From the NCBI GenBank assembly GCA_963832225.1, contig CAWHTI010000013.1, forward strand, positions 8,136 to 72,135: a DNA stretch of 64,000 bases. Direction: 5' to 3'. This document shows positions 9,944 through 46,157 of this stretch, one piece after another. The position numbers and the translations under genes are program-made. How positions within the stretch are numbered: the first letter of the stretch is position 1; each line of letters starts with the position of its first letter. Origin of the DNA: an uncultured Actinomycetes bacterium (GTDB lineage: Bacteria > Actinomycetota > UBA4738 > HRBIN12). Under the pieces are notes generated by a model. The model searched no databases and was not told where the DNA came from. It worked only from the letters and a program-made list of their open reading frames with translations.

Positions 9944-11483
9944 GATCCGCGAACTCGCCGCCTCCGATCATCCTGAGCGTGAGCGCGAACGCCGCCAGGC
10001 CCGCCGATGCGACGGCAACGGTGAGACCCAGGAGGAGCCAGCGACCGTGCGGATCCCCGAGGTCCAGCGCCGCGTAGCCCGCCACGAGGACGGCGGCCAT
10101 CACCGCGGTCGCAACGACGAGCCGAGCGACGAACGCACGCATGCCGTCGAGGTGGATGTCCAGATCGTGACGCATCCGGTACCAGGCGTGCGCGACGTTC
10201 ACGTACTGGGCCAGGGAGTAGGCCGCCGCGACGCCGATGATGCCGTCGGCATCGCCTCGTCCGAACGGCAGGACGAGCAGGGGCACGAGCGCGAGGTTCG
10301 CCACCACCCCGTAGACCGTGTTCCGCAACGGGACCCGTGTGTCCTTCCGGGCGAAGAACGGCGCCAGCATGGCGCGCTGCCACGCGGATCCCACGATGCT
10401 GGCGGCGTAGACCGCCAACGCGAGTCCCAGGAGGGACGCCTCTTCGCGCGAGAGGTTGCCTCGATTGAAGAGTGCGATCGTTGCGGGGACCGCGAGCACC
10501 GCCATCAGCGCCGTCAACGGCACCGAGATGGCCAGCATGATCCGCACACCCAGGCGGGTCGTCGCCCGGAACGACTCGCGATCCTGCCGGCGGCTCTCGT
10601 CCGTCAGGCGCGGGAGGATCGCCACCATCACGGACCGGAACAGGACGGAGCCGCCGATCGCCGAGATCAATCGGTAGCCGTAGGCCAGCAGCGTCAGCGC
10701 CCCCGCCGGCAGGAAGGACACGAGCGCCCGCTCTCCCACACGAGCGAGCGGGTTCAGACCCGCCCCCGCGAGCGGTCGGAGCAGGAGCCGTCCCGCCCCC
10801 AGGACCTCCGCGTCGCGGACGGCGAGGGTGACCCGAGGCCGGAAGCCGCGGACGACGGACATGACCAGCATGAAGACCGCCTGCGCCGCCGCCCCCGCGA
10901 CGTACGCCCAGGCGACGGCCGACAGTGAGGTCCCCCATCCGACCACGACCCCGATCGCGACGCCGTTCATCACCACGTTCATGAACGCCGGCGCGAAGAA
11001 CGAGTAGGTGGCGTTGAGCAGCGCGCGGAGCACCTCGGCGACGGCGACCATCGGCACGATCAGGAACATCACCCGTGTGAGCGACGTGGCGAGGTTCACC
11101 TTCTCGGCCGAGAAGGCGGGCGAGACGACCCGCATCAACGGCCACGCGATCGACGCCGCCAGCGCCGCCAGCAGCGCACCCCCCACCAATGCCGCGCACA
11201 CCAGGATCGAGCACAACCGCCAGGTTTCGTCCCTCCCCTTCTGGCTCAGCCAGGTGGTGATGGTGGGAACCAGCGCCTGGTTCGCGCCGACCATGAGGAT
11301 CGCGACCATGCCGAGTGGGATCAGCGCGGCCTGCACGAACGCGTCGGTCCGTCCGGTGGCCCCGAAACGCTTCACCACCACGATGTCGAGCAACAGGCCC
11401 GACCCGATGGCGAGCGCCGCCGCGATCGAGGTCAGCCCCGACTGGCGCACGACGTCGCGGCCGCGTTCCTCTCGAGTGCTCAC
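9837..11483 (-). CDS. murJ: MurJ/MviN-family (MOP superfamily) lipid-linked glycan flippase
   Basis: Many TM segments; FGATGRTDAF, AVAEVLRALLNA, FARKDTRVP motifs typical of MviN. Confidence 0.85.
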   Translation of the reverse strand: MSTREERGRDVVRQSGLTSIAAALAIGSGLLLDIVVVKRFGATGRTDAFVQAALIPLGMVAILMVGANQALVPTITTWLSQKGRDETWRLCSILVCAALVGGALLAALAASIAWPLMRVVSPAFSAEKVNLATSLTRVMFLIVPMVAVAEVLRALLNATYSFFAPAFMNVVMNGVAIGVVVGWGTSLSAVAWAYVAGAAAQAVFMLVMSVVRGFRPRVTLAVRDAEVLGAGRLLLRPLAGAGLNPLARVGERALVSFLPAGALTLLAYGYRLISAIGGSVLFRSVMVAILPRLTDESRRQDRESFRATTRLGVRIMLAISVPLTALMAVLAVPATIALFNRGNLSREEASLLGLALAVYAASIVGSAWQRAMLAPFFARKDTRVPLRNTVYGVVANLALVPLLVLPFGRGDADGIIGVAAAYSLAQYVNVAHAWYRMRHDLDIHLDGMRAFVARLVVATAVMAAVLVAGYAALDLGDPHGRWLLLGLTVAVASAGLAAFALTLRMIGGGEFADLTRSFRRGPGHRGVDPLLEAQAEPATAPGVPDSRT

Positions 11484-25922: not shown

Positions 25923-26825
25923 GTGACGGGGGTCGTCTTCGGCTACGAGGTCGGTTCCCCGCTGGCTTCGACCTACCTGCGGGCCGGACGCGGCGACCCG
26001 ATCGCGATCGACGAGGTCGACCCGGGGCCGGAGCCCGACGTCGAGCCCGTCCTCGAGTGGCGGCCGCGCCCCGACACCCCGTTCCAGGCGCGGCTCCACG
26101 GGGACCCGGACAGGTACGGCGTGTGGATCGACGGGATGGGCGGTTTCGGCGTCGAGCCGGACGTCCCCCGCATCACGGTGCCGCCCTCCGCCGACACGGT
26201 TCGGCGCGAGGAGCGGCTCTGGGGCGTCCCGGCCGCACTGTGCTTCTCGCGCCGGGGCGACCTGCCGCTGCACGCCGCGGCGATCGACGTCGGGGGCCGA
26301 GCGCTCGTGTTCTGCGGGCCCGGCCGGTTCGGCAAGACCACGCTCGCGACGGCGTTCCTGCGGGCCGGGCACCGGGTGCTCTCGGAGGACCTCGTCTGTG
26401 TGCGTCAGACCGAGGGCGGGCCGGCGGTGCTTCCCGGCCCGGCGATGCTCCGGGTTCGGCCGGATGTCGCGGAACGCCTCGGGCCGATCCACGGCACCCG
26501 GGTGGTGCTGCTCGACGGGGAGCGCGTGCACCTGGCGATGGAGGACGGTCTGCGAGGCAGCGGCGACCCGGTGCCGCTCGCCGGCATCATCATCCTGAAG
26601 CGCGGCCTCCCCGAGATCACGCTCTACCGGGTCGAGCCCGAGCGATTCCTGCCCGAGCTCTTCTCGGTGAGCTTCAACCTGCCGTCGGACATCGAGCGCG
26701 CCCGGTCCTTCGGTGGCGTGGTCGACCTGGCCGGCTCGACGCCCCTGTGGCTCCTGGATCGTCCGCTGGAGTTCGCTACGCTTGACGAGGTGCTCGACAC
26801 GGTGACCGGCACATGTCTGTCATGA
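25923..26825 (+). CDS. HPr kinase-like serine kinase (lasso peptide kinase type)
   Basis: LPLHAAAI, Walker A GPGRFGKTT, LSEDL motifs; operon with B2 and nucleotidyltransferase. Confidence 0.8.
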   Translation: MTGVVFGYEVGSPLASTYLRAGRGDPIAIDEVDPGPEPDVEPVLEWRPRPDTPFQARLHGDPDRYGVWIDGMGGFGVEPDVPRITVPPSADTVRREERLWGVPAALCFSRRGDLPLHAAAIDVGGRALVFCGPGRFGKTTLATAFLRAGHRVLSEDLVCVRQTEGGPAVLPGPAMLRVRPDVAERLGPIHGTRVVLLDGERVHLAMEDGLRGSGDPVPLAGIIILKRGLPEITLYRVEPERFLPELFSVSFNLPSDIERARSFGGVVDLAGSTPLWLLDRPLEFATLDEVLDTVTGTCLS

Positions 26826-27226
26826 CCCGCGACCGGGTCTCCGTGATGCACAAGGTCGGGCTGGTGCTGCGCACATGGTTCTGGTTCGCGACCGCCTGGA
26901 CCCGTCTGCGACGCCGGCCGATCCCGGTCGTGGTCGCGGGACTGGCCGTCATGGATCGGCCCGCAGCTCGGCCGGTGGCTCCTCGCCGGCTCGGCCGGAT
27001 CGTGGCACGCTCGCTGTCGGTCGGACCCTTCCGCGTCCGGTGCCTGTTCACGTCGATCGTCCTGTTCCGGCTGCTCCGAGCCCAGGGCGACGAGGCGCAG
27101 CTCGTGATCGGCCTCCCGCTCGAACCCCGGGACAAGGACGCCCACGCGTGGGTCGAGCTCGCGGGCCGAGACGTCGGGCCGCCGCCGGGTCGCGGGCGGC
27201 ACGTCGAGCTCGCGAGGTACGGGTGA
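26813..27226 (+). CDS. Lasso peptide biosynthesis B2 protein (leader peptidase, transglutaminase-like)
   Basis: RCLFTS (catalytic Cys), LVIG, DAHAWVE (His) motifs; 137 aa. Confidence 0.9.
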   Translation: MSVMTRDRVSVMHKVGLVLRTWFWFATAWTRLRRRPIPVVVAGLAVMDRPAARPVAPRRLGRIVARSLSVGPFRVRCLFTSIVLFRLLRAQGDEAQLVIGLPLEPRDKDAHAWVELAGRDVGPPPGRGRHVELARYG

Positions 27227-28392
27227 ACGCCGACCCGGTCATCGCGGCGGCACTCGTGGCCTCGGCGCGCGAGCACGACGACCCGCCGGCCGAGGTCCAG
27301 CGGGCGGTCGACCTCGACCGCGTCGAGGCGCTGCTGCGGCTCGCGAAGTTCCACCGGATGATCCCGTTCGTGCACCGGGATCTCCGCAGACTCGAGGGCG
27401 TGGACGGCCGGACGATGCAGATGCTCGATCGCTACGAGGTGACGCAGACGGCGAACCAGATGCGGATCGTCACCGATCTGGCGGGCCTGGCGGAGACGCT
27501 CGCGCCGCTGGACGTGCCCTGGTTGACGTTCAAGGGGCCGGTCGCGGCGCAGCTCCTCTACGACCGGCCGGAGCTCCGGACCTATCGCGATCTCGACGTG
27601 CTCGTGCCGCGGGCCGACTTCACGCGCACCCTGTCGTTCCTCCGCGGGACCGGCCTGGAGGTGCTCGACCGCAACTGGACGCTGATCAGCCGCGAGCAGC
27701 GGGGGCAGCTACACCTCACCCTCCCCCTCGGCACGGTCGCCGACATCCATTGGCATCTGCTGAACCGCGGGGTGGTGCGGCACGCCTTCGACGTGGACAC
27801 GGATGGGCTGCTGCGACGGGCCCGGACCGTGACGGTGAGCGGGGTCGCGGCCGGCACGCTGTCGCCGGCCGACACCCTGGTGCACCTGGCCCTGCACGCC
27901 GCGCTCGCCGGCGGCGATCGATTGATCTGGTTGAAGGACATCGAGCGGTCCCTCGCGGTGGAGGAGCCGGACTGGGAGGAGGTCGTCGAACGAGCGCTGT
28001 CGTGGCGATCGGGGGCCGCCACCGCGGTGATGCTGCGACGCGCCTCGGAGGTCCTGGGGGCCGGGATCCCCCTGTGGGTACTGCGCGACCTCGACCCCTC
28101 GGGCGTCCGGCGCCGCGTGACGGAGGCCTTCGACCGGCGGTGGCCGGCCGGCGCCGCGACCGGCGAGCTGACGCCGGCCGCGCTGTGGCCCCAGGTGGTT
28201 CGCGACGGACGGCTCGCCACGATCGGGTCCGTCCTCCAGCGCTCGGTCCGCCGTCCGGCCGGCGCGCTCCGACAGCTGCTCGGCGAGCCGGGCGGCGGCG
28301 GCCGCGACCACGAGCCCGCGGCGGTGCTCCATCCCTCCGGCGGGGACGGCATGCGCGACCGGTACCTCCGAGAGGTGGACGACGGCGCCTGA
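27223..28392 (+). CDS. Nucleotidyltransferase family protein (NTP_transf_5 type, lasso-associated)
   Basis: GTG start overlapping the B2 stop; LTFKGP, RTYRDLDVLV, DIHWHL, LIWLKD motifs. Confidence 0.85.
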   Translation: MNADPVIAAALVASAREHDDPPAEVQRAVDLDRVEALLRLAKFHRMIPFVHRDLRRLEGVDGRTMQMLDRYEVTQTANQMRIVTDLAGLAETLAPLDVPWLTFKGPVAAQLLYDRPELRTYRDLDVLVPRADFTRTLSFLRGTGLEVLDRNWTLISREQRGQLHLTLPLGTVADIHWHLLNRGVVRHAFDVDTDGLLRRARTVTVSGVAAGTLSPADTLVHLALHAALAGGDRLIWLKDIERSLAVEEPDWEEVVERALSWRSGAATAVMLRRASEVLGAGIPLWVLRDLDPSGVRRRVTEAFDRRWPAGAATGELTPAALWPQVVRDGRLATIGSVLQRSVRRPAGALRQLLGEPGGGGRDHEPAAVLHPSGGDGMRDRYLREVDDGA

Positions 28393-28413: not shown

Positions 28414-29349
28414 TCAGATCTCGGCCCGGTACGCCGCGGCCAGCCGATCCTCCAGATCGGTACAGAGCTCGCGGACCCGGGCGTCGATCGGCAACGGCGG
28501 GCGGCTCCCGGCGGCTCGGCGATCGATGTGCTCCGCCAGTTCGGGCCGGTACGGGAAGCCCAGGAACGCGCAGACGCGTCCGATCGCCGCCTCCGGGTCC
28601 TCCACGGTCGCCTCGTAGGACGCGAGCACGACGTCGGTGCGGGCGTCCAGGCCGAGGTCGAAGAACAGCTGGTTGCGCAGCCACCAGAACAACGCCGCCC
28701 CCGACTCCGCCGACATCGCGCCCAGGTCGAAGGTGGCGATCAGCTCGAGGCGCGCCGCCGACAGGCCGCCCGCCTGCCAGATGCCGGTGTCGCCCGCCGC
28801 GATGCGACGTAGCGCCTGGAGGTTGCTGTCGCCGAACTTCGTCGTCGACGACCGCACCCTGCCGTCCACGCCGCGATAGGCCCAGATCGCGCGGGCCGGG
28901 CTCGGCGTGGCGATCCCGTCCAGGAGATCGGCGGTCCGGTGCGAGTCGATCAGCGGCTTGAACAGCACGTAGCGATGTCCGCTGCGCTCCACGAGCGCGC
29001 GGATCACGTCGTCCGGTCGCAGCTGGAACCGGTCGAAGGCCGCGCGGTCGTTCTCGTTGCGCACCTCGAACTCGGGCGATCGTTCCAGGCCGCGCACGAG
29101 CATGTTGGTCCCGGATCGCTGCACGCCCACCACGAATACGGGGACGGCGTCCGGCGCCACGTCGTGGCTGCGACGCCACCGACGCTTGGCGAGCGCGAGC
29201 GGGATCCGTTGCAGCGGATCGAGCTGATCCTCCTCGATCAGACGTCCGATGCCCTGCTCCCGGGCCCACCGGACGTGACGGCCCACGCGCCGCCGCAGCC
29301 GGGCAGAGCCGGACTCGGGCGGTGTCGCGACCGGCCCGTTCGCTCCCAC
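28414..29349 (-). CDS. Sulfotransferase-domain protein directly downstream of the RRE gene
   Basis: VVGVQRSGTNML PAPS loop, FKPL, WAYRGVDGRVRS, LASYE motifs. Confidence 0.75.
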   Translation of the reverse strand: MGANGPVATPPESGSARLRRRVGRHVRWAREQGIGRLIEEDQLDPLQRIPLALAKRRWRRSHDVAPDAVPVFVVGVQRSGTNMLVRGLERSPEFEVRNENDRAAFDRFQLRPDDVIRALVERSGHRYVLFKPLIDSHRTADLLDGIATPSPARAIWAYRGVDGRVRSSTTKFGDSNLQALRRIAAGDTGIWQAGGLSAARLELIATFDLGAMSAESGAALFWWLRNQLFFDLGLDARTDVVLASYEATVEDPEAAIGRVCAFLGFPYRPELAEHIDRRAAGSRPPLPIDARVRELCTDLEDRLAAAYRAEI

Positions 29350-29357
29350 CCCGACGC

Positions 29358-29651
29358 TCAGACCTGCGCGCTCTGCAGCTCGACCAGCTGCCGTTCGCTC
29401 AACTCGGCCAGGAACGACTCCACGTCGCCCTCGAGGTCGGACGGTGGGTCGTCGAGGCGGTCGCGGAGCGCGGACACCAGATCGCCGAAGGCGATGTCGG
29501 ACTCGCTCAACTCCCAGATCGCGGCGCCCACCTCGTTCACGCCGTGGTACTGCGTGCTGTCCAGGTGCAGCAGCACACCGCCCGAGCCCTCCGCCAGCCG
29601 TCGGAACACGGCCCGGGGGTTGCGGTGCACCATCGTGGTCGGATCGATCAT
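29358..29651 (-). CDS. PqqD-family RiPP recognition element (lasso B1)
   Basis: MIDP..VFRRLAEGSGGVLLHLDSTQYHGVNEVGAAIWELS..DVESFLAELSERQLV, 97 aa; C-terminal part of track ORF 29358-30716. Confidence 0.9.
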   Translation of the reverse strand: MIDPTTMVHRNPRAVFRRLAEGSGGVLLHLDSTQYHGVNEVGAAIWELSESDIAFGDLVSALRDRLDDPPSDLEGDVESFLAELSERQLVELQSAQV

Positions 29652-29671
29652 CCGTGGCTCCTCTCGTCGGC

Positions 29672-30523
29672 TCAGTACAGACCCAGCGTTCCGCGCCGTC
29701 GCTCGCGCTCCAGCGCCCGGCGGAAGGCGAAGATCCCCACCGCGAGCGAGACCACGGCGTAGGGCAGCAGGATCCCCACCCGGGGGATCGTCTCCGCCCA
29801 CCCCGCGTCCCCCAGCAACGCCTCCCGGGCGGCGGTCAGCGCGATCGTCACGGGACTGTACGAGAAGACCACCTCCGCCCAGTGGGGGAAGACGTTGGTC
29901 GGGAAGTACGTCCCCGAGCCGATCGTGATGAACGTGGTCGCGATCCCGATGACGCCCGTGCCTCGCTTGAACGTGAGGGTCCACGCCGCCGCCAGCACGC
30001 CGAGCCCCCACACGAACGGGATGAATGCGAGCAGGACCAGCATCGTCGGGCCGAGGCCCGACCATTGGAAGCTGGTGCCGAAGACGACCGTGGTGAGCCC
30101 CAGGAAGATGAAGGTCCGCACGGGCACGTACACGAGGTCGTACACCACCGAGCCCATCTGGATCGTGGTGTAGGCGGTAGGCGTCAGCAGGAGCGACTCG
30201 AGCGTCCCCTGCAGCTGCTCCTGCCGGATCACCGAGTACACGCGCCCGAGTCCCACCGCCATGAACGAGCTGATAGCGATGCCGATCGCCACGAACTCCA
30301 TGTACGTCGGCCTGCTGCCGCCGAACTCCGGGATGGCGCCCGGCCTGACGATCAGGCCCACGAAGTTGAAGACGACGACCTGCACGATCATGGAGAGCCA
30401 ATCGGTGATGAACGACATCCGATAGCTCCAGGCGACCAGGAAGTCCCTGCGCAGGAACGCGGTCAGCTTCGAGACCTCGCCGCGGACGGCGCCGATCCGC
30501 CCGACGGGCGCCTCCGCGCTCAT
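29672..30523 (-). CDS. ABC-2 type exporter permease
   Basis: About 6 TM segments, EQLQGTLESLLLTP motif. Confidence 0.9.
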   Translation of the reverse strand: MSAEAPVGRIGAVRGEVSKLTAFLRRDFLVAWSYRMSFITDWLSMIVQVVVFNFVGLIVRPGAIPEFGGSRPTYMEFVAIGIAISSFMAVGLGRVYSVIRQEQLQGTLESLLLTPTAYTTIQMGSVVYDLVYVPVRTFIFLGLTTVVFGTSFQWSGLGPTMLVLLAFIPFVWGLGVLAAAWTLTFKRGTGVIGIATTFITIGSGTYFPTNVFPHWAEVVFSYSPVTIALTAAREALLGDAGWAETIPRVGILLPYAVVSLAVGIFAFRRALERERRRGTLGLY

Positions 30524-31512
30524 CGGGACCCCTCCGTGGTGAGGAACAGGAACGCCGCCTCGATCTCGGAGCGCTCCTCCCGGCAGGTGAGCACGGCGAG
30601 GCCGGCGGCGTCCAGCCCCGCGATCGCCGCTCCGAGCACCACGTCCTCGCGGAGCGCCACCAGGAAGTGCTGCCCGTCCGAGTCTCCGGACAGGGCCACC
30701 TCGCCGATGCCGGCAAGGGCGCCCCGGGCGCGGCCCAGGACGTCGCCGTCGCCCCGCAGATGCACCAGGTACCGGCGGGCGATCGTCACGGCCATGAGCT
30801 CGGGGACCGTGCCCTCGAACCGCACGGAGCCCTCGCGCAGGACCGACACGCGGTCGGCGAACCCGCGGATCTCGTCGATGCGCTGGGTCGCCCAGATCAC
30901 CGCCGTGCCGCGGGCCCGGGCCTGCGAGACCAGCTCCTGCACCCGGCGGGCGGCCTCCGGATCGAGGTCGTGCGTCGCCTCGTCCACGAACAGGATCGGC
31001 GGCTCCATCAGCAGGGCGCGCGCCACCGACAGGCGCTTCTGCATGCCGTGCGAGTAGGTCCCGATCGCCCGGCGGGCGGCATCCTCGAGGTCGACGTCGC
31101 GGAGCACCTGCCAGGCCCGGTCGGACGCCGCTCGCGCCGTCAGCCCGTGCATCCGGGCGAAGAACCGGAGGTTCTCCAGACCCGACAGGCGCATGTAGAA
31201 GGTCCGGTCGCCCGAGGGGACCAGACCGATCGCGCTGCGGGCGCGCCGCGACATCAGCTCGCCGGCGGACGACCCCAGCACGCGGACCTGGCCGGCGTCG
31301 GGGCCGGTGAGGCCCGTGAGGATCCGCACCAGCGTGGTCTTGCCCGCGCCGTTGGGCCCCAGCAGCGCGTGGATCTCACCGGGCATGACGGCCAGGGACA
31401 CGTCGCGGAGCGCCTGCTTGTCCCCGAAGCTCCGGGTGACGCCGAGGGCCTCGATCGCGGGCGTCGCGGTCGCGGACCCCCCGGTGGGACGGGCCGTGCC
31501 CACCACGGTCAC
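30520..31512 (-). CDS. ABC exporter ATP-binding subunit
   Basis: LLGPNGAGKTT, YSHGMQKRL, LFVDE; GTG start overlaps the cyclase stop. Confidence 0.9.
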   Translation of the reverse strand: MTVVGTARPTGGSATATPAIEALGVTRSFGDKQALRDVSLAVMPGEIHALLGPNGAGKTTLVRILTGLTGPDAGQVRVLGSSAGELMSRRARSAIGLVPSGDRTFYMRLSGLENLRFFARMHGLTARAASDRAWQVLRDVDLEDAARRAIGTYSHGMQKRLSVARALLMEPPILFVDEATHDLDPEAARRVQELVSQARARGTAVIWATQRIDEIRGFADRVSVLREGSVRFEGTVPELMAVTIARRYLVHLRGDGDVLGRARGALAGIGEVALSGDSDGQHFLVALREDVVLGAAIAGLDAAGLAVLTCREERSEIEAAFLFLTTEGSR

Positions 31513-33308
31513 GGTCCCTCCCACAGGTCCAGGAACGCGTGCACCATCGCCAGGTCCTTCGCCCAGATGTACTCGAACACGTTCATCTCCGCCCGGTCGA
31601 TCTGCTCGGCCAGCAGCCCGTAGTCGACGCCGGGCATCCGGAAGGAGCCCGACGCCGTCCACCGGCGCAGGTGGTCGTACTCGATGGCCGACTCGGCCGC
31701 CGCGTTGAAGACCGTCTTCTCGCGCCGGTCGAGGATCGGGTCCGGCACCCGCCCCCGAAGGAGCTCCCGTACCAGTCCCTTCGTCCGCACGTCCGGGAAC
31801 TTGACCTCGGCCGGCAGGCTCAGGAAGAACTCCCACACGTCCACGTCCGCCCACGGGTAGCGGGCGCGGACGCCGACCGTCTCCTGGACGACCTCGTTGG
31901 CCTCCGCGGCGAGCCCGGGTCCGACCAGGCCGCCGACCTGGGTCGCGCGCCACCGGCCGGCGGCCGAGCCGGTGCCCTCGACGGCACGCTCGTTCACCTT
32001 GGCGATGTCGATCCACGGCGGCACCCGCTGCCCGCGGCGAGGCGGGCGCCGCCGCAGGTACGCGGCGTAGAGCGACGCCGGCACGAAGGCGGCGCCGAGC
32101 TGGCGGGCGAGACCCGCGGCGGGGACGCCCTTGCCTCGCTGCATCCGCACGTGGCGGGCCAACGGGCCGAGGCGTCCGCGTCGCAGCAGGTGCGCGAGGA
32201 GATGACCGCGCATGTCGAAGACCAGCTCGGCCACGGCGCCGTTCATCACGCTGCGCAGACCCAGCTCCGCGGCGACGGCGTAGTGCCGTTCCGCGTCCGC
32301 GGGAGGAAACACCGGCACCGGCCCGTCGAACCGGTCCGCCCACTCGCGCAGCCGGTCGAGCTGCGGCGCATCACGTCGATACGTGTGCAGATCCATCCCG
32401 AGCCGGTCCACCACGATCTGGACCCAGGCCGATTCGTCGACGCTCGGGATGATCCGGATAGACGGCGGTCAGGGCCGGCATCGGCGTGCCGAAGCGTCGC
32501 TCGAATGCAGGCGCCGCGTAGGCGGCGATCGCCGGCGAGTCGATCCCGCCGGACAGCGAGACCGCGTCGGCGCCGGTCAGCATGCGGGCCGTGGCCGCGC
32601 CGAACACCTCGTCGAAGCGGTCCTGCAGCTCGTCGGCCGTGTAGCGCGCGGTCTCCAGGAGTCGCTCGGGGTGCCAGTACCGCCACGTGGCGCTCCCTGC
32701 CGCCTCGCCACGGATCGCCGTCCCCTTCGGCAGGCGGGTGACGCCGGCCAGGGCCGCCGGCGTCTGATCACCGTAGTTGCCGTAGAAGATGCGCTGCAGC
32801 ACGTCGAGGTCGGGCTCGCGCCGCAGGCCCGCGCCGGCCACGACCTGCTTGGCCTCGCTCGCCACCACCAGCGCTCCGGCCCCGTCGTGAAGGAACAGGG
32901 GCCGGTAGCCGATGTGATCGCGCGCGCACCACAGGCGGGCGCCGTCGGTCACCGCGACCGCGAACACACCTCGCATCCGGGCGAACGCCCGCTCCCCGTC
33001 GGCCCGGAACAGGGCCGCCACGACGCCGGCCGGCTCCGCGGACGAGAGCGTGACCCCCGCCCGCTTCAGCTCGCGGACGAGCTCCTCCAGGTTGTCGAGC
33101 CGGCCGGTGAAGGCCGCCGAGCAGGTCGCCCTCGTGCGAAAGCGAGGACTCCGGGAGGTCGTCGGTGGCGGTCACGCCCAGGGCGCAGGCGCCGCGGACG
33201 AGCGTGCCCCGCACCGGTCCCCGATGCGGGGCCGCCACGCAGCGCGCGCTCGACCGTGGCGACGTCCGGGCGCTGCCGGCGGGCGAGCAGCGCGGCGAGG
33301 GAACCCAT
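31509..33308 (-). CDS. Lasso peptide cyclase (asparagine synthetase-like isopeptide-bond-forming enzyme); three single-base insertions (~33235, ~33115, ~32435)
   Basis: Reconstructed: MGSLAA (no N-terminal Cys), FTGRLDNL, ARDHIGYRPL, SLSGGIDS ATP motif, RYPWAD, KGLVRELL. Confidence 0.85.
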
Positions 33309-33354
33309 GGGAAGGAGTGTAGGGAGGTCGCGCAGACGGACCCGGGAGACACGA

Positions 33355-33383
33355 AACCGCCCGGCCGTGTGGGCCGGGCGGTT
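33355..33383 (-). terminator. Stem-loop between precursor and cyclase (terminator/attenuator or mRNA stabiliser)
   Basis: 12-bp perfect stem AACCGCCCGGCC / GGCCGGGCGGTT with 5-nt loop; only a short T run on the minus strand. Confidence 0.65.
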
Positions 33384-33413
33384 CGAGGTTCGGTTTCGGT
33401 GCTCTTCCGGGCC

Positions 33414-33556
33414 CTACGAGCCGGCCGGGTGCGAGTACTCGAGGAAGTTGTCGGTCTCGTAGTCGGTGAAGTCGCTCTTGTCACCGGCGCCGGGGTTGTC
33501 GAACGTGTGACCCGCGATCGAGCCGAAGTCCTTCACTGTGGCTTCTCGTACTTCAT
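33414..33556 (-). CDS. Lasso peptide precursor, 47 aa after restoring one base: MKYEKPTVKDFGSIAGHTF-DNPGAGDKSDFTDYETDNFLEYSHPAGS
   Basis: AGGAGG RBS before ATG 33556; 143 bp to TAG (1 short of 144); leader matches YxxPx(L/V)xxxGxxxxxT; immediately upstream of the cyclase. Confidence 0.85.
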
Positions 33557-33599
33557 GCGTCCTCCTCGGGGGTCGGAGCGGGGGTGGCTATGTCAGGGG

Positions 33600-33629: not shown

Positions 33630-33775
33630 ACGGTTCGAACGGGCATTCCGTGCCTGCAACGGCCCTAGGCCCAAGCGCCCCAGGCTGCCTCCGGAGGCCT
33701 CTCAGGCAGACCGGGGACGCCGGACGCCCGTGCCACCTTTGCCGAGGCCGGAGACCCGTCGGTAATGTGCGGGCC

Positions 33776-34485
33776 ATGCTGGACACGGACGCGCTCACGC
33801 CCTGGATCCAGCCGCAGCACCTCTCGGAGGACGCGCTCGCCGGCTACCGCGGGTCCATGGCGGCCCACCCCGCACGGATGGTCGTCCTGCACGACGTCAT
33901 GGCGGCGGCGCCGGTCGAACGCCTGGCCGGCTTCCTGGCGAGCGACGCCGAGTACACGATCGAGCACGGCCTCTACTCCCAGCACGACGGGGTCGAGTCG
34001 GCGACGTGGGAGGCGGCGCCCGTCGAGGACCGGTTCTTCCGCTTCGGCAAGCTGAGCGGACAGCGGCCGGAGGCGATGCTCTCCGACAACAGCCTGACGT
34101 ACCTCCAGTGGCGCACGTTCGTCACGGAGCCTCCGTTCCGGGCGTTCTTCGAGTCCGTGAGCGGGGTTGGAGCTCGGCGCCAGCGACGACTTCGGCTGCC
34201 ACGAGTTCCGGGTGGGCGACTTCCTCCTTGCGCACGACGATGCCAATCGCGACCGGCGGGTGGCCCTGGTGATGTACCTCACGCCCTCGTGGCGGCCGGA
34301 GTTCGGCGGGGCGCTGGCGATGAGGCAGCCGACGGCATCGGTCGACCGGGTCGAGGCGTCGTTCAACACGATGGTCGTCTTCGACACGCTGGCCGGCAGC
34401 AGCCACCACATCGAGCGGATCGAGGACGGGGCCGGCCGGACAGGCCCGCCGGACCTTCGGGGGCTGGTTCCCGAACCCATCGTGA
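33776..34485 (+). CDS. 2OG-Fe(II) oxygenase (prolyl-hydroxylase-like), frameshifts ~34165 and ~34445
   Basis: LAHDDA (HxD), VALVMYL, WRPEFGGAL, SHHIERI (distal His), RTFGGWF. Confidence 0.75.
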
Positions 34486-35575
34486 ACGAGGCCAAGAGCG
34501 AGGCCAAGAACGGGACCGGGAGCGACGCCGGCGTCGCGATCAGCGTGGTGATCCCCACGAGGAACCGAGCGCACCTCCTGGCCGACTGCCTGGCGTCGCT
34601 GGCCGCACAGGTGGCAGCCGTGCCGTTCGAGGTCATCGTCGTCGACAACGCGTCGACGGACGACACGCCGCGGTGGCGACGGCATGGACCGCCCGCGACG
34701 ACCGGTTCCGCCTCGTTCGCGAGGAGGTCCTGGGGCGGGCGGCGGCCCTCAACGCGGGGATGGCGGCCGCCCGCGGGGACCTGCTGCTCTTCACCGACGA
34801 CGACGTGTACGTGCAGCCCGGCTTCGTGGAGGCGTACCGGCGGTTCTTCGACGGCCACGCCGAGGGCCACGTGTTCGCGGGCGGGGCGATCCACTCGGTG
34901 CCCATGGACATCGAGTGGCCGTTCTGGTTCTCGGCGCGGGCGGCCCGGTCGTTGATCCTCGTGGACTGGGGGCCGCAGCGGGCGCTGATCCCCGGCGAGA
35001 CGGTGTGGGGCGGCAACACGGCCGCGCCGCGGCGGCTCTTCGACGCGCTGGGGACCTGGAACGAGGAGATGGGGGTGCGCGGGGACACCCGCCCGCCGAT
35101 CGAGCGCCCGGAGCTGAACGAGGACCTCGAGTTCGAGGAGCGGGTGCGGGCCGCGGGCGGCGAGATCTGGTTCGTCGCCGAGGCCGTGGTGAACCACCGC
35201 ACCACGCTCCCCGGCCCGCGGATCTGCCTCCGCAAGGGGTTCGGAACGGGACGCAACGACTACAACCGCGCGTTCCGGCCGGGGAAGCCGGACGACCGCG
35301 TCCGCGGTCCGCGGAACGTCCGGTCCTTGTCCGCGTGGTGCTCGGCGCTGCTCCGCTACCTGGTGTGGGCGCTGATCTTCCGGCTGCGCCCGGGCCGCAC
35401 CGCCTTCGACCGCGCGTGGTTCGCCGCATGGTCGAGCGGGTGGCGGATGGAGGATCTGCTCGCCGACGGCGTCCACGACGGCTTCGATCGCAGGATCCGC
35501 AGCGTCACGTGGGGGGCCACGCGGCGGGCGGCGCGCCTGGCGCCAGAGGAGCTGACGGAGGAGCTGACCGGATGA
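34482..35575 (+). CDS. Glycosyltransferase family 2 (frameshift ~34675)
   Basis: SVVIPTRNR, VVDNASTDDT, LFTDDDVYV, EDLEF motifs. Confidence 0.85.
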
Positions 35576-37020
35576 GCGAGGGCCGCGGGTCGCCCCCCGC
35601 GTGGCGGCCTCTCGACGCCCTCGCGCTGGCCGCCGTCACCCTCGCGGGCGGTCTGATCCGGCTGTGGCAGCTGAACGTGCCCGACCGCATCGTGTTCGAC
35701 GAGGCGTACTACGCCCACGACGCCTGCGTCTTCGTGCGGCCGGCGTCCGCCTGCGGCGGCATCGGCGAGGCCTTCTCCGAGGAGCACCCGTTGCTGGGCA
35801 AGTGGATCGTGGCGGCGGGGATCAAGCTGTTCGGCAACGAGCCGTTCGGCTGGCGGATCATGTCGGTCGTGGCGGGCACGGCCGCCATCGCGCTCCTGTT
35901 CGTACTCGCCCGGCGCCTCCTCCGTTCCAGGGTCGCGGCGACCCTGGCCGCCGGACTGCTCGCCGTCGACGGGATGCACGTCGTGCTGTCCAGGGTGGCG
36001 ATGCTCGACGTGTTCGTGACCACGTTCTCGCTCGCCACGGTGCTGTTCGTGGTGATCGACCGCGACCGCGAGCGGCGAGCGGACCGGAGACGCGAGCGGA
36101 CCGGTCGCGAGCGGATCGCGGATCGGCCGTGGCTCCTGGCGGCCGGGGTCGCCGGCGGCGCCGCGGTGGCGACGAAGTGGTCGGGCCTGCCCTTCCTGGC
36201 CATGTCGGCCATCCTGGTGCTGGTGTGGGACCGGCGGGCGCGCCGCACCGCGCCGGCGGCCGGCGGGACGTCCACTGCCCGCTGGGCCGGCCTCGGCGCG
36301 ATCGCGGTCGCCCTGATCCTGGTGCCGCTCGCTGTCTACGTGCTCTCCTATGCCGGACGCCTCGACGGACGGCTGCTCGCCCTGCCGTGGCAGCACGACT
36401 CGTGGGCCTGGGCGTTCGTCCGGCGCCAGGTGCGCATGCTGTCGTTCCACGCCGACCTGGCCGGCGCCTATCCGTACGAATCGCCCGCCTGGTCGTGGCC
36501 GATGTTGAAGCGGCCGGTGGTGTTCGCGTTCGAGGTCGAGGCCGGCCGATTCCGCGAGATCCTGGCGCTCGGCAACCCGGTGGTCTGGTGGGGAGGCGCG
36601 GCGGCGACGATCGCGTGCGCCGTCCGGTGGCTGCGGGCCCGGGGCGGTCCCGAGGGCGTCATCCTGGCCGGCGTCGCGGCGGGCTACCTGTGGTGGCTCC
36701 CGGTGACGTCCTCGCGCTCGTTCTCTTTCCTCTTCTATCTCACGCCGGCCGTGCCGTTCCTCTGCCTCGCCGTCGCCCGGGTGGCGCAGCGGACGTGGGG
36801 CTCGGTCGCGGGCCGGGCGGCGAGCGCGATCGTCGCGCTGGCAGCCGTCTGGGCGTTGGTCTTCTTCCTGCCGGTGCTGACCTTCCGGCCGCTCGATGGC
36901 GGAGACTGGGCGTCGCGGTTGTGGTTCACCGCGTGCCGTCCGGAGTCGGTGGTGGGGGATCCGCCGCGTCCCACGTCCTCGACCGTGACGGCGCCGCCCG
37001 AGGGCTGGTGCTGGATATGA
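35572..37020 (+). CDS. Protein O-mannosyltransferase-like (PMT/GT39) membrane glycosyltransferase
   Basis: VFDEAYY, EHPLLGKW, FGWR, SRVAMLDVF, TKWSG, YESPAWSWP, GNPVVWW motifs. Confidence 0.85.
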   Translation: MSEGRGSPPAWRPLDALALAAVTLAGGLIRLWQLNVPDRIVFDEAYYAHDACVFVRPASACGGIGEAFSEEHPLLGKWIVAAGIKLFGNEPFGWRIMSVVAGTAAIALLFVLARRLLRSRVAATLAAGLLAVDGMHVVLSRVAMLDVFVTTFSLATVLFVVIDRDRERRADRRRERTGRERIADRPWLLAAGVAGGAAVATKWSGLPFLAMSAILVLVWDRRARRTAPAAGGTSTARWAGLGAIAVALILVPLAVYVLSYAGRLDGRLLALPWQHDSWAWAFVRRQVRMLSFHADLAGAYPYESPAWSWPMLKRPVVFAFEVEAGRFREILALGNPVVWWGGAAATIACAVRWLRARGGPEGVILAGVAAGYLWWLPVTSSRSFSFLFYLTPAVPFLCLAVARVAQRTWGSVAGRAASAIVALAAVWALVFFLPVLTFRPLDGGDWASRLWFTACRPESVVGDPPRPTSSTVTAPPEGWCWI

Positions 37021-37718
37021 GGAGGGGGGATCGCGTGGCCGTGCTCTCACCGCACCTCGACGACGCGGTGCTCTCCCTGGGTGCGGCCATCGCGGCCTGG
37101 TCGCGCGCGGGGGCGGAGGTGCGCGTGGTGACCGTGCTCGCCGGACGGCCGGACTCCACGCTCCCTGCGGGCCCCTGGGACACCGAGACCGGCTTCGCGA
37201 CCGAGGGGGAGGCGACCCGGGCCCGTCGCCTCGAGGACCGCTCCGCCTGCGCGACCCTGGGCGCGGCACCCGTCTGGTTGGACCACGCGGACGAGCAGTA
37301 CGACCGTGGGGGCTCCGACGACGAGATCTGGCCGGAGATCCTCGAGGGCGTGGCCGGCGCCTCGACGGTCCTCGCCCCCGGCTTCCCGCTGTCACACCGG
37401 GATCACGCGTGGCTCGCGCTGATGACGCTGGCCCGGCGGGATCCGGCGTGGCGGGTGGGGCTGTACGTGGAGCAGCCCTACGCGATCGGCGCGGGACGCC
37501 CCCGGGATCATCGCGGACGGTTCGGGTTCGAGCCGGCGTTCGTTCCGATCCGCACCTCGTGGCGGCACCGGCGGGCGAAGCGCCGCGCGCTCGAGGCCTA
37601 CGGCTCGCAGCACGGACAGCTCGGATGGGTGGTCTCCGGGACCTGGGGCGACCTGCAGCGGCGGCTGGCCGCGCAGGAGCGTCGCCGCGGCGGAGAGATG
37701 GTGGCATGGGTGACCTGA
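37017..37718 (+). CDS. PIG-L family deacetylase
   Basis: SPHLDDAVLS, RRLED, SHRDH motifs. Confidence 0.85.
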   Translation: MRRGDRVAVLSPHLDDAVLSLGAAIAAWSRAGAEVRVVTVLAGRPDSTLPAGPWDTETGFATEGEATRARRLEDRSACATLGAAPVWLDHADEQYDRGGSDDEIWPEILEGVAGASTVLAPGFPLSHRDHAWLALMTLARRDPAWRVGLYVEQPYAIGAGRPRDHRGRFGFEPAFVPIRTSWRHRRAKRRALEAYGSQHGQLGWVVSGTWGDLQRRLAAQERRRGGEMVAWVT

Positions 37719-38473
37719 TCTCGAGGGGGGTCGCGCTGCTGCCCGCCGGGATCCGGCGACGGCTCCGGGCCGCGAACCACCGGTGGCTCGTCGCCGTCGG
37801 ACGTCGCCGGCGCTCCTCCGTCCGCACTCCGGACATGGGTGAGCTGCGGCGGACGGAGCCCTTCAGCCGCCGCTGGGGCAACGACCGGGGGCGGGCGGTG
37901 GACCGCTTCTACATCGAGCGGTTCCTGCGATCGCACGCCTCGGACATCCGCGGACGGACGCTGGAGGTCGCGAACCGCGCGTACACGGACCGGTTCGGGA
38001 CCGGCGTCGAGGTCGCCGACGTCCTGCACGTGGAGGAGGGCAATCCGATGGCCACGATCGTCGGGGATCTCGCCGACGAGACGACGCTGCCCGCGGACGC
38101 CTTCGACTGCTTCATCCTCACGCAGACCCTGCAGTCGATCTACGACGTCCGCACCGCCGTGCGCACCGTGCATCGGATCCTCGCGCCGGGAGGCGTGGTG
38201 CTCGCCTCCGTGCCGGGGATCAGCCAGATCGTGCACCCCGACTACGAGATGTGGGGCGACTACTGGCGCTTCACGGCCCACGCCATGGAGCGGCTGTTCT
38301 CCGAGGCCGGGTTCGCTTCCGGTGATCTCGAGGTGCGGGTCCACGGCAACGTCCTGGCGGCGACCGCGTTCCTGTACGGCCTGGCCTCGCGCGAGCTCAC
38401 CCCGCAGGAGCTCGACGTGGATGACGGCGACAACTATCAGCTCGTGATCACGGTCCGCGGCGTCAAGCGGTGA
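37706..38473 (+). CDS. Class I SAM-dependent methyltransferase (glycan-associated type)
   Basis: DRGRAVDRFYIERFL, FDCFILTQTL, ILAPGG, DYWRFT motifs. Confidence 0.8.
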   Translation: MGDLISRGVALLPAGIRRRLRAANHRWLVAVGRRRRSSVRTPDMGELRRTEPFSRRWGNDRGRAVDRFYIERFLRSHASDIRGRTLEVANRAYTDRFGTGVEVADVLHVEEGNPMATIVGDLADETTLPADAFDCFILTQTLQSIYDVRTAVRTVHRILAPGGVVLASVPGISQIVHPDYEMWGDYWRFTAHAMERLFSEAGFASGDLEVRVHGNVLAATAFLYGLASRELTPQELDVDDGDNYQLVITVRGVKR

Positions 38474-38494
38474 GCGCTTCGTAGACTCGGTGCG

Positions 38495-41400
38495 ATGCGC
38501 ACCTGTCCCTCCTGCGGCGAACGCAATCCGTCACGGGCGAAGTTCTGCCTGAACTGCGGATCCCCCCTGGACGTGGGCGTGTCCGGGTCCGAGGAGCGCA
38601 AGCTCGTCACCGTCCTGTTCTCCGATCTCGTGGGCTTCACCGAGCGATCCGACCGGGCGGATCCCGAGGACGTGAAGGCGATGCTGCGGGTCTTCCACGC
38701 CCGGTTGAAGGACGAGATCGAGCACTACGGCGGGACCGTCGACAAGTTCATCGGGGACGCCGTGCTGGGTGTGTTCGGCGCGCCGGCCAGTCACGAGGAC
38801 GATCCCGAGCGGGCCATCTTCGCCGCCCTGCGGATCCAGGAGGCGATGGACGAGCTGAACGAGCAGCGACCCGGCCTGGAGCTCGCCGCCCGCATCGGGA
38901 TCACCACCGGGGAGGCGGTGGTCTCGTTCGGCGCCGGCCCCCAGATCGGCGAGAGCCTCACCGGCGACGTCGTGAACACCGCGTCGAGGCTCCAGAACGT
39001 TGCTCCGCCCGGCGGCATCGTGGTGGGAGAGCCGACCTATCGGGCGGCCGCGCATCAATTCGTGTTCGAGGAGCTCGAGCCGGTCCAGGTGAAGGGCAAG
39101 GCGGAGGCGCTGCGGATCTGGCGCCCGCTCCGATCGCGGAGCCGCATCGGCCTGGACGTCCGCGAGCGGCCGCGCACCGTGTTCGTCGGGCGTGGCGAGG
39201 AGGCGGCCCGCCTGCGCTCGATGTACCGCAGCGCCGTGCCGAGCGACGGCGAAGGCTCCGTCCAGCTCGTCACGATCGTGGGCGAGCCCGGCGTGGGCAA
39301 GACCCGTCTGGTGCAGGAGTTCGCGGTCTTCGTCGAGGAGCTGCCCGACCTCGTGCGCTGGCGCGTGGGGCGCAGCCTGCCGTTCGGCGAGGGGGTGAGC
39401 TACTGGGCCCTCGGCGACGTGGTGAAGGGCGAGGCCGGGATCCTGGACTCCGACGCCCCCGAGATCACGGAGGCGAAGCTCCACACCGCGCTCTCGTCCG
39501 TGATCGCGAGCGGCGAGGAGCGCGAGTGGATCCACGCCATGCTCACGCCGCTGCTCGGCATCGCCGAGACCGGAACGTCCACCGCGCGGGACGAGCAGTT
39601 CACGGCGTGGCGGTCGTTCCTGGAAGCCATGGCGATGGAGAACCCGCTGGTGCTGATCTTCGAGGATCTGCACTGGGCCGACGACAACATGCTGGACTTC
39701 ATCGAGGACTTCGTGCGCCGCGCCACCGGCCCGATCCTGGTCGTCTGCACGGCGCGGCCCGAGCTGGTGGCCAGACGCCCGTCCTGGGGCGCCGGGGTGC
39801 GCAACACCCAGACCATCCAGCTGCCGCCGCTCACGGACTCCGAGACCACGATCCTGCTGTCGGCGCTGCTGGACCGCGCCGTGCTCCCCGTGGAGACGCA
39901 GGCGATGCTCCTGGAACGCTCGGGGGGCAACCCCCTGTACGCCGAGGAGTTCGTGCAGATGCTCGCGGACCGGGGGGTGATCGATCGCCGGACGGGCGAT
40001 CGGGCGTACGGCACCACGTCGAACGCGGCGATCCCGGTCCCGGAGTCGCTGCAGGCGCTGATCGGCGCGCGGCTGGATGCCCTCCCGGCGGCCGACAAGG
40101 CGCTGATGCACGACGCGGCCGTGATCGGCAAGGTGTTCTGGTCCGGCGCCCTGGCCTCGCTCGCCGGCCTCGGCGAGGACGAGATCGTGGAACGCCTCGA
40201 CGACGTCACCCGGCGCGAGCTGGTCCGCCCCTCGCGCACCTCCTCCGTGGAAGGGCAGGCCGAGTACACGTTCTGGCACGGGCTGGTCCGCGACGTGGCC
40301 TACGGCCAGATCCCGCGTGCGTCGCGTGGCGCGAAGCACCTCGCCGTGGCCGAGTGGCTGGAGGCGACCGCCGGCGACCGCGTCTCCGACGTGGCCGAGG
40401 AGCTCGCCCACCACTACGGCGAGGCGCTGCGCTTGGCCCGGAGCATCGGGACCGGCCATCCCCCGGCGCAGCTCGAGCGCCTCACCGCGGAGTCCGCGCG
40501 CTACCTCCTGCTCGCGGGCGAGCGCGCCCTGCGGTTCGACGCCGCCAAGGCCGACGCGTATCACCGCCAGGCCCTCGAGCTGCTGCCCGCCGGCAGCTCC
40601 CTGCGCCCGCGGGTCCTGCGCCATGCCGCCGACACGGCGAGCATCCTCGGGCGGTTCGAGGAGTCCGAGCGACGATTCGCCGAGGCGATCGAGGGCTTCC
40701 GGTCCGCCGGCGACGATCTGGGCGCGGGCGAGGCCATGGGCATGCTGGCGCGGGCGAAGTCCAAGCGAGGCGACGTGGCCGGGGCGAAGCCGCTCTACGA
40801 GGAGGCGATCGAGCTGCTCGAAGCTCTGCCGCCCGGGCCCGAGCTCGCCCGCGTGTACAACCGCAAGGCGGGCCAGCTCCTCCTCGCCGGGGACTACGGC
40901 GCGTCGCGGAACTGGGCGGACAAGGCGCTCGACCTCGCGCGCGCGTCCGGGCTGGACGACGAGGTCGTGCGCGCGCTGCAGGAGCGCGGCGCGTCCCGCT
41001 GCGAGCTCGGCGAGGAGGCCGGCGGGTTCGAGGACCTGCGCGAGGCGCTGCGGCTCGGCCTCGCCGGGGGGATGGGCGAGGAGGTGGTGCTCACGTACGG
41101 CAACCTCGCCTACCAGCAGTGGTTCCGCGAGGGTCCCGCCACCGCGCTCGAGACGTGGGGGCAGATGGAGAGCTACTCCGAGCGACGCGGCTACCTCACG
41201 CACGCGATGTGGGCGAAGACCGGCCGGTGCGAATCGATGTTCGACCTCGGCGACTGGGACGAGGTCCTGGAGCTGGCGCAGCAGGTCGGCGACTGGGACG
41301 CGGAGCACGGCGAGTCCCAGGTCGGGACGTACGCCCGCTTCTTCCAGGCGTGGGTCCACGTCCGCCGGGGAGAGATGGAGCCGGCCGCGCGTCTGGCCCA

Positions 41401-44429: not shown

Positions 44430-44455
44430 GGGCTACCGCTTCGCTACGTGAGCCC
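44430..44455 (+). repeat. Single 26-bp REP-like element
   Basis: GGGCTACCGCTTCGCTACGTGAGCCC, 25/26 identical to the 8790 unit; just after the GNAT stop. Confidence 0.85.
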
Positions 44456-44589
44456 CAGGCAGGGCCCGCGACGCCGACCGGTCATGTCGGGCGGCGCCGG
44501 CGTCACCCGTTCGGGTCAAGTTTCCTCCCCCGTTCTGCCGATACCTCGTGCGTAGCCACGATCGCCGAGTACGAGGGGGAGACGACCGG

Positions 44590-46157
44590 ATGCCCGCACG
44601 GTCCACATCAGCGACGCCCACGCTGTCACGCCGCCAGATGTTGCGCACCACGGCGCTCGGCGCCGGCGTCGCCGTCGGCGGCACCGCGGTGTCGTCGCTG
44701 CTCGGCGCCGCGCCGGCACTCGCCGGCACCTCGCCGACCGACTTCGTCTCAGCCGACCTCGACCTGCACCTGCTGCGCCGCGCCACCTACGGCGCGACGC
44801 CGAACCTGCTGAGCCAGGTTCGCTCGGCGGGCCGCAACGCGTGGCTGGACCGGCAGCTCGCCCCGGCCTCGATCGACGACTCGTCCTGCGACGGGCTGAT
44901 CGCCGATCGCTATCCGCATCTGTCCTGGTCGATCGATCAGGCCTGGAACAACCTCGAGGGCGACTGGAGCCTGATGATGGAGCTCGGGTCAGGCGGCGAT
45001 CGCCCGCGCCGCCTGGAGCAAGCGGCAGCTGTTCGAGGTCATGGTGGACTTCTGGTCCAACCATCTCAACGTCACGAACCCGTTCGACGGCGGCTGGTGG
45101 TGCCGCCACGACTACGACAAGCGGGTGATCCGCAAGCACGCCCTCGGCCGCTACCACGACATGCTCGTGGCCTCCGCGACGCACCCGGCGATGATGCTGT
45201 ACCTCAACAACGCGGAGTCCACGAAGGACAACCCGAACGAGAACTACGGCCGGGAGCTCCTGGAGCTGCACACGGTCGGCGTGGACGGAGGCTACTCCGA
45301 GGAGGACATGCGCCAGTCCACGCTGGTGATGACGGGCTTCGGCATGGACTGGGACAACGGCCACTTCGTGTACGAGCCGTGGGCGCACTACACGGGCCCG
45401 GTGCAGGTCATGGGGTGGGACGCCGCGAACAACCGCGCGGGGAAGGGCTACGACGTCGGCCTGAGCTACCTCGCCTACCTCGCGCGTCACCCGTCGACGG
45501 CGCAGCGGATCGCCGCGAAGCTCTGCCAGCGGTTCGTGGCGGACGATCCGCCGCAGAGCCTGGTGGACAAGCTGGCGGCGACCTATCTGGCGCAGGACAC
45601 GGCGATCGTTCCGGTGCTGCGGAAGCTGTTCCGATCCCCCGAGTTCGCGGCCTCGCTCGGACGAGAAGATCCGCCGCCCGATGGAGGACACGGTCGCCAC
45701 GCTGCGGATCCTCGGCGTGAAGCCCGACGTCGACGGCACGAACGGGATCCAGGGCCTCTACTGGATGATCCAGGACCTGGCCCACGCGCCGATGGCGTGG
45801 TCCCCGCCGAACGGCTACCCGGACGAGGCCGACGCGTGGCGGTCGGCCGCGGGCACGCTCGGACGGTGGAACATGCACATGTCGATCGCAGCGCACTGGT
45901 GGCCCGACGACCTCGTGCGGCCGCCGCTGAAGGACCTGCTACCGGCCACCAATCCGAAGACCCACGGCGACCTCGCGGACGCGCTGTCCAAGCGGCTCGT
46001 GTTCCGCACGATGTCCTCGGCGCACCGCGACGCCGTGCTGGGCTTCCTGGGGAGGTCCGCGGGCGATCCCGTCAACCGCGACAGCGAGGCGCTGGGGTGG
46101 CGGCTGCCCTACCTGGTGGCCCTGATCCTCGACTCGCCCTACCACGAGGTCAGGTGA
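44590..46157 (+). CDS. DUF1800 family protein, Tat signal (frameshifts ~44990 and ~45660)
   Basis: SRRQML Tat motif, HLLRRATYG, FWSNHL, PAMMLYLNN, NENYGRELLELHTVG motifs. Confidence 0.85.

Follow-up and report, generated by a model that had tools for sequence, protein, structure and literature searches.

The described systems closest to the locus reported here are the lasso peptide clusters of the paeninodin and pseudomycoidin type, in which a kinase phosphorylates a serine of the linear precursor and the phosphate is decorated with sugars by a nucleotidyltransferase (PMC8498205). Some of the paeninodin-type clusters also have a sulfotransferase, for which a role has been described (PMC8498205), and the paeninodin-like clusters of Bacilli are embedded in polysaccharide loci, with paeninodins described as restricted to Bacillota (PMC13381572). 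The BsfA/BsfK system of Bradymonas sediminis has the YxxPxL motif at positions -17 to -12 of the leader, an internal phosphoserine and a B1 protein that assists the kinase (PMC10368454). In the systems of the linear polyphosphorylated peptides (LPP) of Bacillota, the leader is of the YxxP type and the clusters encode a RiPP recognition element (RRE), an HprK-like kinase, a nucleotidyltransferase and an exporter (PMC13381572). Finally, the CanE protein of the canucin system is an Fe/2OG lasso peptide hydroxylase, as cited in PMC13381572 (reference 24 therein).

The window analysed here is a 64,000 nt stretch of contig CAWHTI010000013.1, from the metagenome-assembled genome (MAG) of an uncultured actinomycete (G000; 3.5 Mb, 17 contigs, 73% complete). 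We consider it very probable that it contains a lasso-type, kinase-tailored (paeninodin-like) RiPP cluster with the gene for a 47-residue precursor, and that the break in the reading frame of this gene is artefactual. The precursor gene is located at positions 33414–33556 on the minus strand, and directly downstream on the same strand is the gene for an Asn-synthetase-like macrolactam synthetase (lasso C protein, 31509–33309; Pfam GATase_7 and Asn_synthase), which is spread over several frames with indels near 33236, 33121 and 32445. The minus strand further encodes an ABC transporter ATPase (30520–31512; PF00005, E 1e-30), an ABC-2 type permease (29672–30523; PF01061), a PqqD-like RiPP recognition element (lasso B1, 29358–29654; PF05402, E 1e-14, with the NCBIfam lasso_PqqD model below cut-off) and, as the last gene of the precursor's operon, a sulfotransferase (28414–29349; PF13469 and PF00685), which is found likewise in the congeneric MAG G001 and in Gaiellales loci. 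Convergent to this operon, on the plus strand, are genes for an HPrK-related serine kinase with the Walker A sequence GPGRFGKTT (25923–26825; partial matches to TIGR04352, TIGR04355 and PF07475, below cut-offs), a transglutaminase-like leader peptidase (lasso B2, 26813–27226; PF13471, 55 bits and over the cut-off, with its Cys in RCL and its His in AHAW) and an NTP_transf_5 nucleotidyltransferase (27241–28392, start uncertain; PF14907, E 7e-40). A 2OG-Fe(II) oxygenase gene (33767–34485, plus strand; PF13661 and PF13640) is divergent from the precursor gene and is frame-broken, but intact with 238 aa in the short-read contig L080, and is followed by a family-2 glycosyltransferase gene (GT2, 34482–35575, plus strand; PF00535), which is frame-broken near 34666. 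The lasso context proposed in the sequence-only reading of this DNA was thus recovered, with the precursor adjoining a lasso-type cyclase and with B1, B2 and exporter genes in the cluster.

The scores of both the cyclase and the kinase were far below the curated lasso and HprK NCBIfam cut-offs, with the cyclase giving a partial match of 72 bits to the lasso cyclase model NF033535 (cut-off 525); the cyclase gene is intact in L080 and, with 596 aa, in L041, a Jatrophihabitans MAG locus with a precursor of the QTPG type. A PDB sequence search with the intact cyclase gave a single weak and uninformative match, to the hydroxyamidotransferase 7ylz (E 6e-4). In the flank of the cluster (33767–35575 and 36000–38500), the 2OG oxygenase and GT2 genes are joined by a methyltransferase gene, a deacetylase-like ORF and a large ORF resembling a membrane glycosyltransferase.

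The cluster shares with those of paeninodin (Paenibacillus dendritiformis) and pseudomycoidin (Bacillus pseudomycoides) the A and C genes, the split B1 and B2 genes, the ABC exporter, the HPrK-like kinase and the NTP_transf_5 nucleotidyltransferase. It also sits among glycan genes, its precursor also ends in Ser, and its core starts with x-x-P-G, as does that of paeninodin. It differs in its phyla, which are represented by Actinomycetota and Chloroflexota MAGs, in a leader that is two residues longer from Tyr to Thr, in a core with Asp as the predicted first residue, in the K...D-x-F-x-E-x-S signature of the family, in the lack of a conserved acceptor at core positions 7–9 in most relatives of the precursor, and in the additional 2OG oxygenase. 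The precursor resembles BsfA in having YxxPx[L/V] at the same positions and a possible internal phosphoserine (Ser42), whereas in BsfA position -2 is Ile, the first residue is Gly and the ring is closed at Asp8, as opposed to Thr at -2, Asp1 and an uncertain ring for the window peptide. The presence of the cyclase and B2 genes and the absence of an SpI-type peptidase separate the cluster from the LPP type. The likeness to canucin is one of gene context, as a 2OG-Fe(II) oxygenase gene (Pfam families 2OG-FeII_Oxy_3/4 and Ofd1_CTDD) adjoins an Asp-rich lasso precursor gene. The kind of cluster is known, and the new features are its phylogenetic context, a core that starts with Asp (or another unusual residue), and a signature of the family that is at odds with the textbook lasso ring. 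Lasso clusters with kinase, nucleotidyltransferase and sulfotransferase genes are so far known from Bacillota and some Proteobacteria, and the locus belongs to a counterpart of theirs in uncultured Actinomycetota from soil, which is large and undescribed.

The precursor gene is preceded by a Shine-Dalgarno sequence (GAGGAGG, 33561–33567, minus strand) located 4 nt 5′ of the ATG at 33556–33554, which is kept in all near-identical contigs and reads AAGGAGG in G001. As assembled, the frame continues with AAG TAC GAG AAG CCA CAG TGA and the product is MKYEKPQ, with the TGA stop codon at 33535–33533. A second frame is open from upstream across a GTG at 33536–33534 to the TAG at 33416–33414, and encodes (T)VKDFGSIAGHTFDNPGAGDKSDFTDYETDNFLEYSHPAGS. 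The 143 nt of the gene correspond to 48 codons minus one nucleotide, and one added base gives a 47-residue peptide, MKYEKP(T/A)VKDFGSIAGHTF-DNPGAGDKSDFTDYETDNFLEYSHPAGS. Based on the reading frame and on alignments with homologues, codons 1–6 (MKYEKP, which include the Y-x-x-P of the motif by which the leader is recognised) are at 33539–33556, the site of the missing base is between 33538 and 33539, and what remains of the gene (codon 7 without its first base, then VKDFGSIAGHTF, DNPGAGDKSDFTDYETDNFLEYSHPAGS and the stop codon) is at 33414–33538. The ribosome binding site and the split frame of 143 bp, from the ATG frame to the TAG, had been described accurately in the sequence-only reading, as confirmed by re-reading the minus strand, and its count of seven acidic residues in the core agrees with ours. 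Neither the repaired nor the unrepaired peptide matched an NCBIfam model at E ≤ 1.

Folding of the region between the precursor and cyclase genes predicted a G+C-rich hairpin of 13 bp, followed by UUUCG (33354–33384, minus strand), with a minimum free energy of -49.3 kcal/mol and a z-score of -4.7 for an 81 nt stretch. The hairpin is likely to be an attenuator or partial terminator, and a comparable hairpin is present downstream of the precursor gene in G001. A simple scan for terminators and promoters found nothing, with the hairpin not called as it has no long T run.

Intact forms of the gene were found at several levels of relatedness. At the syntenic place in the congeneric MAG (G001; CAWHGC010000002.1, isolate MFD00392.bin.2.365) there is a single ORF reading MRYEKPEVKDFGSIAGHTFDNPGVGDKSSDTTFETDPMYGEYSHPAAS, which is 77% identical to the repaired peptide over residues 1–47, and a search of a collection of 5.8 billion proteins with the repaired peptide gave 25 intact homologues of 47–50 aa, with E-values of 1e-11 to 1e-24. 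Exact-sequence look-up found the repaired peptide with Thr7 as a called gene on two contigs (P0029), and its Ala7 variant as a called gene on seven contigs (P0028), all nine being from short-read soil assemblies. The short-read soil contigs were 90–94% identical to the window DNA and had the extra base: where the window has AAG CCA-CAG TG, contigs L080 and L081 read AAG CCA ACT GTG, and contigs L075–L079 read AAG CCA GCA GTG. These matches show that the joined-frame peptide is not a chance reading, and the hidden precursor suggested in the sequence-only reading is a genuine RiPP precursor, with exact copies in public assemblies.

The same reading had placed the lost base as a third C in the CC run (assembled letters at 33541–33534: CCACAGTG). 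This repair was right in effect, but since the near-identical contigs read CCA ACT GTG or CCA GCA GTG, the lost base most likely opened codon 7 (between 33539 and 33538), and was either an A (Thr7, by contraction of AA to A) or a G (Ala7); with a lost A the peptide is identical to that of the earlier repair. The expectation that gene callers will miss the gene held for this contig, where the public annotation has only a truncated 40-aa ORF starting from the GTG at 33536 (P0030), but the intact homologues are routinely called, as hypothetical proteins. That the annotated 40-aa ORF (MKDFGS...) with its short leader is the true product is highly improbable: although it is the form called in the public record, it lacks a ribosome binding site of its own, with the strong one belonging to the ATG 20 nt upstream, and it lacks the Y-x-x-P motif, which is invariant in the family and required for RRE binding (PMC10368454, PMC13381572).

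We searched for frameshift events in the whole assembly, defined as abutting tblastn segments that change frame, using query ORFs filtered for a high GC3 and the lowest GC2. With the ORFs of G001, covering two contigs of this genome (C13, which is 206,454 nt long and holds the window, and C15), there were 42 events in 117 kb (3.6 per 10 kb), and with the ORFs of the closed genome G017, genome-wide, there were 10 events in 51 kb (1.95 per 10 kb), whereas the reverse control with G017 as target gave a single event in 43 kb (0.23 per 10 kb). G001, from the same genus, has 4.7 frame-breaking indels per 10 kb and is at least as noisy. The frameshifted genes found in the comparison with G017 included the conserved genes for an Mfd-like helicase and a MoxR-like ATPase, which served as yardstick because rpoB is absent from this incomplete MAG. 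Compared to L080, which is the closest intact contig, the window has about 10 single-base indels in 3.9 kb, located in the GT2 gene (34666), the 2OG oxygenase gene (34435, 34336, 34322 and 34161), the precursor gene (33539) and the cyclase gene (33236, 33121 and 32445), and all four genes are uninterrupted in L080. The G001 MAG comes from Microflora Danica, a long-read (nanopore) project, and by inference this assembly is of the same origin. Since a genome with a frameshift every 3–5 kb would not be viable, the breaks are, from this comparison between assemblies, best read as consensus errors, and the break in the precursor frame is almost certainly an error of this kind in an indel-rich long-read metagenome assembly, and neither a pseudogene nor a case of programmed frameshifting.

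A real deletion, in a population with a decaying lasso cluster and a dead precursor, cyclase and oxygenase, could account for several cluster genes being broken together, but is improbable: the frameshift density is equal on C13 and C15 (versus G001) and also on C17 and C2 (with the G017 ORFs), conserved genes such as that for the Mfd-like helicase are affected too, the rate is about 8-fold that of the closed relative with the same scoring, and insertions and deletions are both present in a sequence that is otherwise 93–94% identical to the intact contigs. The strong ribosome binding site and ATG, with a stop after seven codons while the other frame is open, are also what might be expected if the frame change were decoded by programmed ribosomal frameshifting or transcriptional slippage. 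The probability of such decoding is close to nil, as the frame change is present in no homologue (more than 60 relatives were examined, all with single ORFs) and the site is not kept as a slippery sequence, and the intact near-identical alleles effectively refute it. The consensus-error reading has consequences for the rest of the genome, as short or odd ORFs, split genes and seeming pseudogenes of this MAG are suspect on the same grounds, and in indel-rich long-read MAGs gene callers truncate or lose short RiPP precursors and their enzymes. Other frame-break sites in the window are at 6477, 9518, 9669, 12928–13918, 23222, 26070, 44987, 45663 and 62125. Two of these (44987 and 45663) divide over three frames a Tat-signal, DUF1800-like secreted protein (44443–46154, plus strand), which is up to 92% identical to its G001 orthologue.

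The frameshift itself is ordinary, and the value of the locus is in the precursor family. The leader residues Y3, P6, V8, G12 and T18 fit the lasso spacing YxxPxLxxxGxxxxxTx, and with residue 20 as +1 the Tyr is at -17, the Pro at -14, the Val at -12 and the Thr at -2. The YxxPxVxxxGxxxxxT motif with Thr at -2 pointed out in the sequence-only reading matches the rule for lasso leaders, in which YxxPxL spans -17 to -12 and Thr occupies -2 (PMC10368454). From this spacing between Tyr(-17) and Thr(-2), cleavage by B2 should be between F19 and D20, giving a predicted core that starts at Asp. The first residue of most characterised lasso peptides is Gly, Ala, Ser or Cys, so the predicted Asp at +1 departs from the usual small residue, but lasso peptides starting at Leu1 or Trp1 are known, which makes Asp1 atypical without disqualifying it. 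In the peptide's own clade, three close relatives have Asn at +1 where the others have Asp, and Asp7, the only acidic residue at core positions 7–9 of the repaired peptide, is invariant. The D1-D7 ring put forward for this core is thus permitted by the sequence, but its acceptor is kept neither in the sister clade nor in most of the family, and we regard a canonical ring from the Asp1 alpha-amine to Asp7 (Asp20–Asp26 of the precursor) as possible but rather doubtful.

A profile search of 1.84 billion representative sequences gave 278 proteins at E ≤ 1e-3. At 50% identity the family amounts to at least 278 clusters; most come from soil Actinomycetota, others from Chloroflexota. The leader xYExPx[VI]xDFGSIAxHT[FY] is shared by 37 genome loci, from Actinomycetota (Acidimicrobiia, Gaiellales, Thermoleophilia and Jatrophihabitans) and Chloroflexota. 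Cyclase, B1, B2, kinase and ABC genes accompany the precursor gene in most of these loci, with the HPrK-related kinase adjoining it in 30 of the 37. The positions conserved in the family are Lys27, Asp36, Glu40 and Ser42, of which Glu40, Ser42 and Asp36 are invariant or nearly so in the C-terminal half, and acidic residues at the canonical core positions 7, 8 and 9 have frequencies of only 0.17, 0.03 and 0.07 (about 27% together) in 136 representatives at 50% identity, which leaves the D1-D7 ring unproven. A single cleavage site that would give a 7–9 ring throughout the family was also sought by hand, but of the sites after HTF, after Lys and after Lys-Asp none fits all sub-families.

As the canonical acceptor at core positions 7–9 is absent in most members, the product may not be a textbook lasso peptide. 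An alternative in which the gene is real but the macrolactam is formed on the family-invariant Asp36 or Glu40, with the alpha-amine of Ser28 or the epsilon-amine of Lys27 as donor, has in our estimate a probability approaching one half. Next to the low frequency of acidic residues at positions 7–9, this alternative would account for the sister clade (HTF|QTPGxGTKS...D...E.S, 62–65% identical), which has no acidic residues other than the counterparts of Asp36 and Glu40 and which keeps B1, B2, the kinase and an intact cyclase of 596 aa. It would also fit the presence of a Lys located 6–13 residues (mode 8–9) ahead of Asp36 in each of the 162 members that carry the C-terminal motif, and the co-occurrence of a single Cys between this Lys and Asp36 with a Cys directly after E-x-S (counts 34/19/1/82, Fisher p 3e-17, kinship ignored), which is suggestive of a ring-to-tail disulfide if the segment from Lys to Asp is the ring. 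One option of this type is a new N-terminus at Ser28, with a nine-residue ring SDFTDYETD and the tail NFLEYSHPAGS. This option is disfavoured by the Cys at core position 3, which pairs with the Cys of an E-C-S sequence (28/1/4/103, Fisher p 1e-23, kinship ignored) and implies that the segment after HTF is retained in the product. In addition, the fixed spacing from Tyr(-17) to Thr(-2) and the invariant HT[FY] favour a B2 cut between F19 and D20, and a cut after Lys would leave the recognition motif at a variable distance. A Lys nucleophile, as needed with Lys27 as donor, is without known precedent for lasso cyclases. Both Cys statistics disregard phylogenetic relatedness and are no more than suggestive, and Asp7 is invariant in the clade of the window peptide itself. 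The probability left by the canonical and the Asp36/Glu40 ring falls to something other than either.

For the family as a whole, we tentatively propose that the lasso machinery is used for a non-canonical macrolactam on Asp36 or Glu40, with the side chain of Lys27 or an unpredicted N-terminus as donor. The segment after HTF would then be an N-terminal arm, tied to the tail by a disulfide in some branches, and the Ser of E-x-S would be phosphorylated. This proposal is less likely to be right than wrong, but if it is true, the product would represent a new, lasso-related class of topology. Instead of the textbook ring acceptor, the family conserves Lys...Asp-x-Phe-x-Glu-x-Ser and paired Cys residues, and its lasso cyclase homologues may make a different ring. 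The representatives P0047–P0193 are split by four Cys patterns: none, one Cys in the Lys to Asp segment and one after E-x-S, core position 3 with E-C-S, and C-x3-C within the Lys to Asp segment. These patterns suggest different disulfide staples on one scaffold.

In the pathway that we infer for the cluster, as to the ring and every enzymatic step, the PqqD-like B1 protein would bind the Y-x-x-P-x-V leader, the transglutaminase-like B2 protein would cleave after Thr18-Phe19, and the Asn-synthetase-like enzyme would adenylate an Asp or Glu side chain for macrolactam closure. The HPrK-like kinase would phosphorylate a conserved Ser, for which Ser42 in the invariant E-x-S and the Ser at the C-terminus are the candidates. 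The C-terminal Ser is present here and in 49 of 113 representatives, whereas the invariant Ser, also throughout the cyclase-bearing family, is Ser42. The nucleotidyltransferase, sulfotransferase and 2OG oxygenase may attach further groups, and the ABC-2 pump would export the product.

Contig L075 (ENA ERZ27311206 k141_2775055, 46 kb) has the intact precursor and 2OG oxygenase genes, but the cyclase gene is not next to them. Its likeness to the window stops about 130 nt beyond the precursor stop codon, and the precursor gene is followed by a 64-aa C-terminal fragment of gyrB, carbonic anhydrase, gyrA and other genes. Either the contig is chimeric, or its strain is without the remaining cluster. 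In the MAG of Actinomycetota bacterium SMAG_U11902, identical copies of the precursor are located on two contigs (L038 and L039), with the cyclase, ABC, B1, B2 and kinase genes on one and the nucleotidyltransferase and sulfotransferase genes on the other. Either the precursor gene is duplicated, or the assembly was broken at a repeat.

Finally, a branch from Acidimicrobiia and other Actinomycetota MAGs (L062–L065, L071 and L073, with the precursor at about position 10001 in each) lacks both the cyclase and B2 genes; its precursors carry HTY in place of HTF, and their short cores contain G-G-S-G. Of the cluster-type genes, these precursors have only those for a PqqD protein and an HPrK-like kinase beside them, while leuS and a gene for an MsbA-like ABC exporter are in the vicinity, and the branch seems analogous to the LPP systems. 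Judged from this co-occurrence, the conserved Ser appears to track the kinase, while Lys27, Asp36 and Glu40 appear to track the cyclase and B2.
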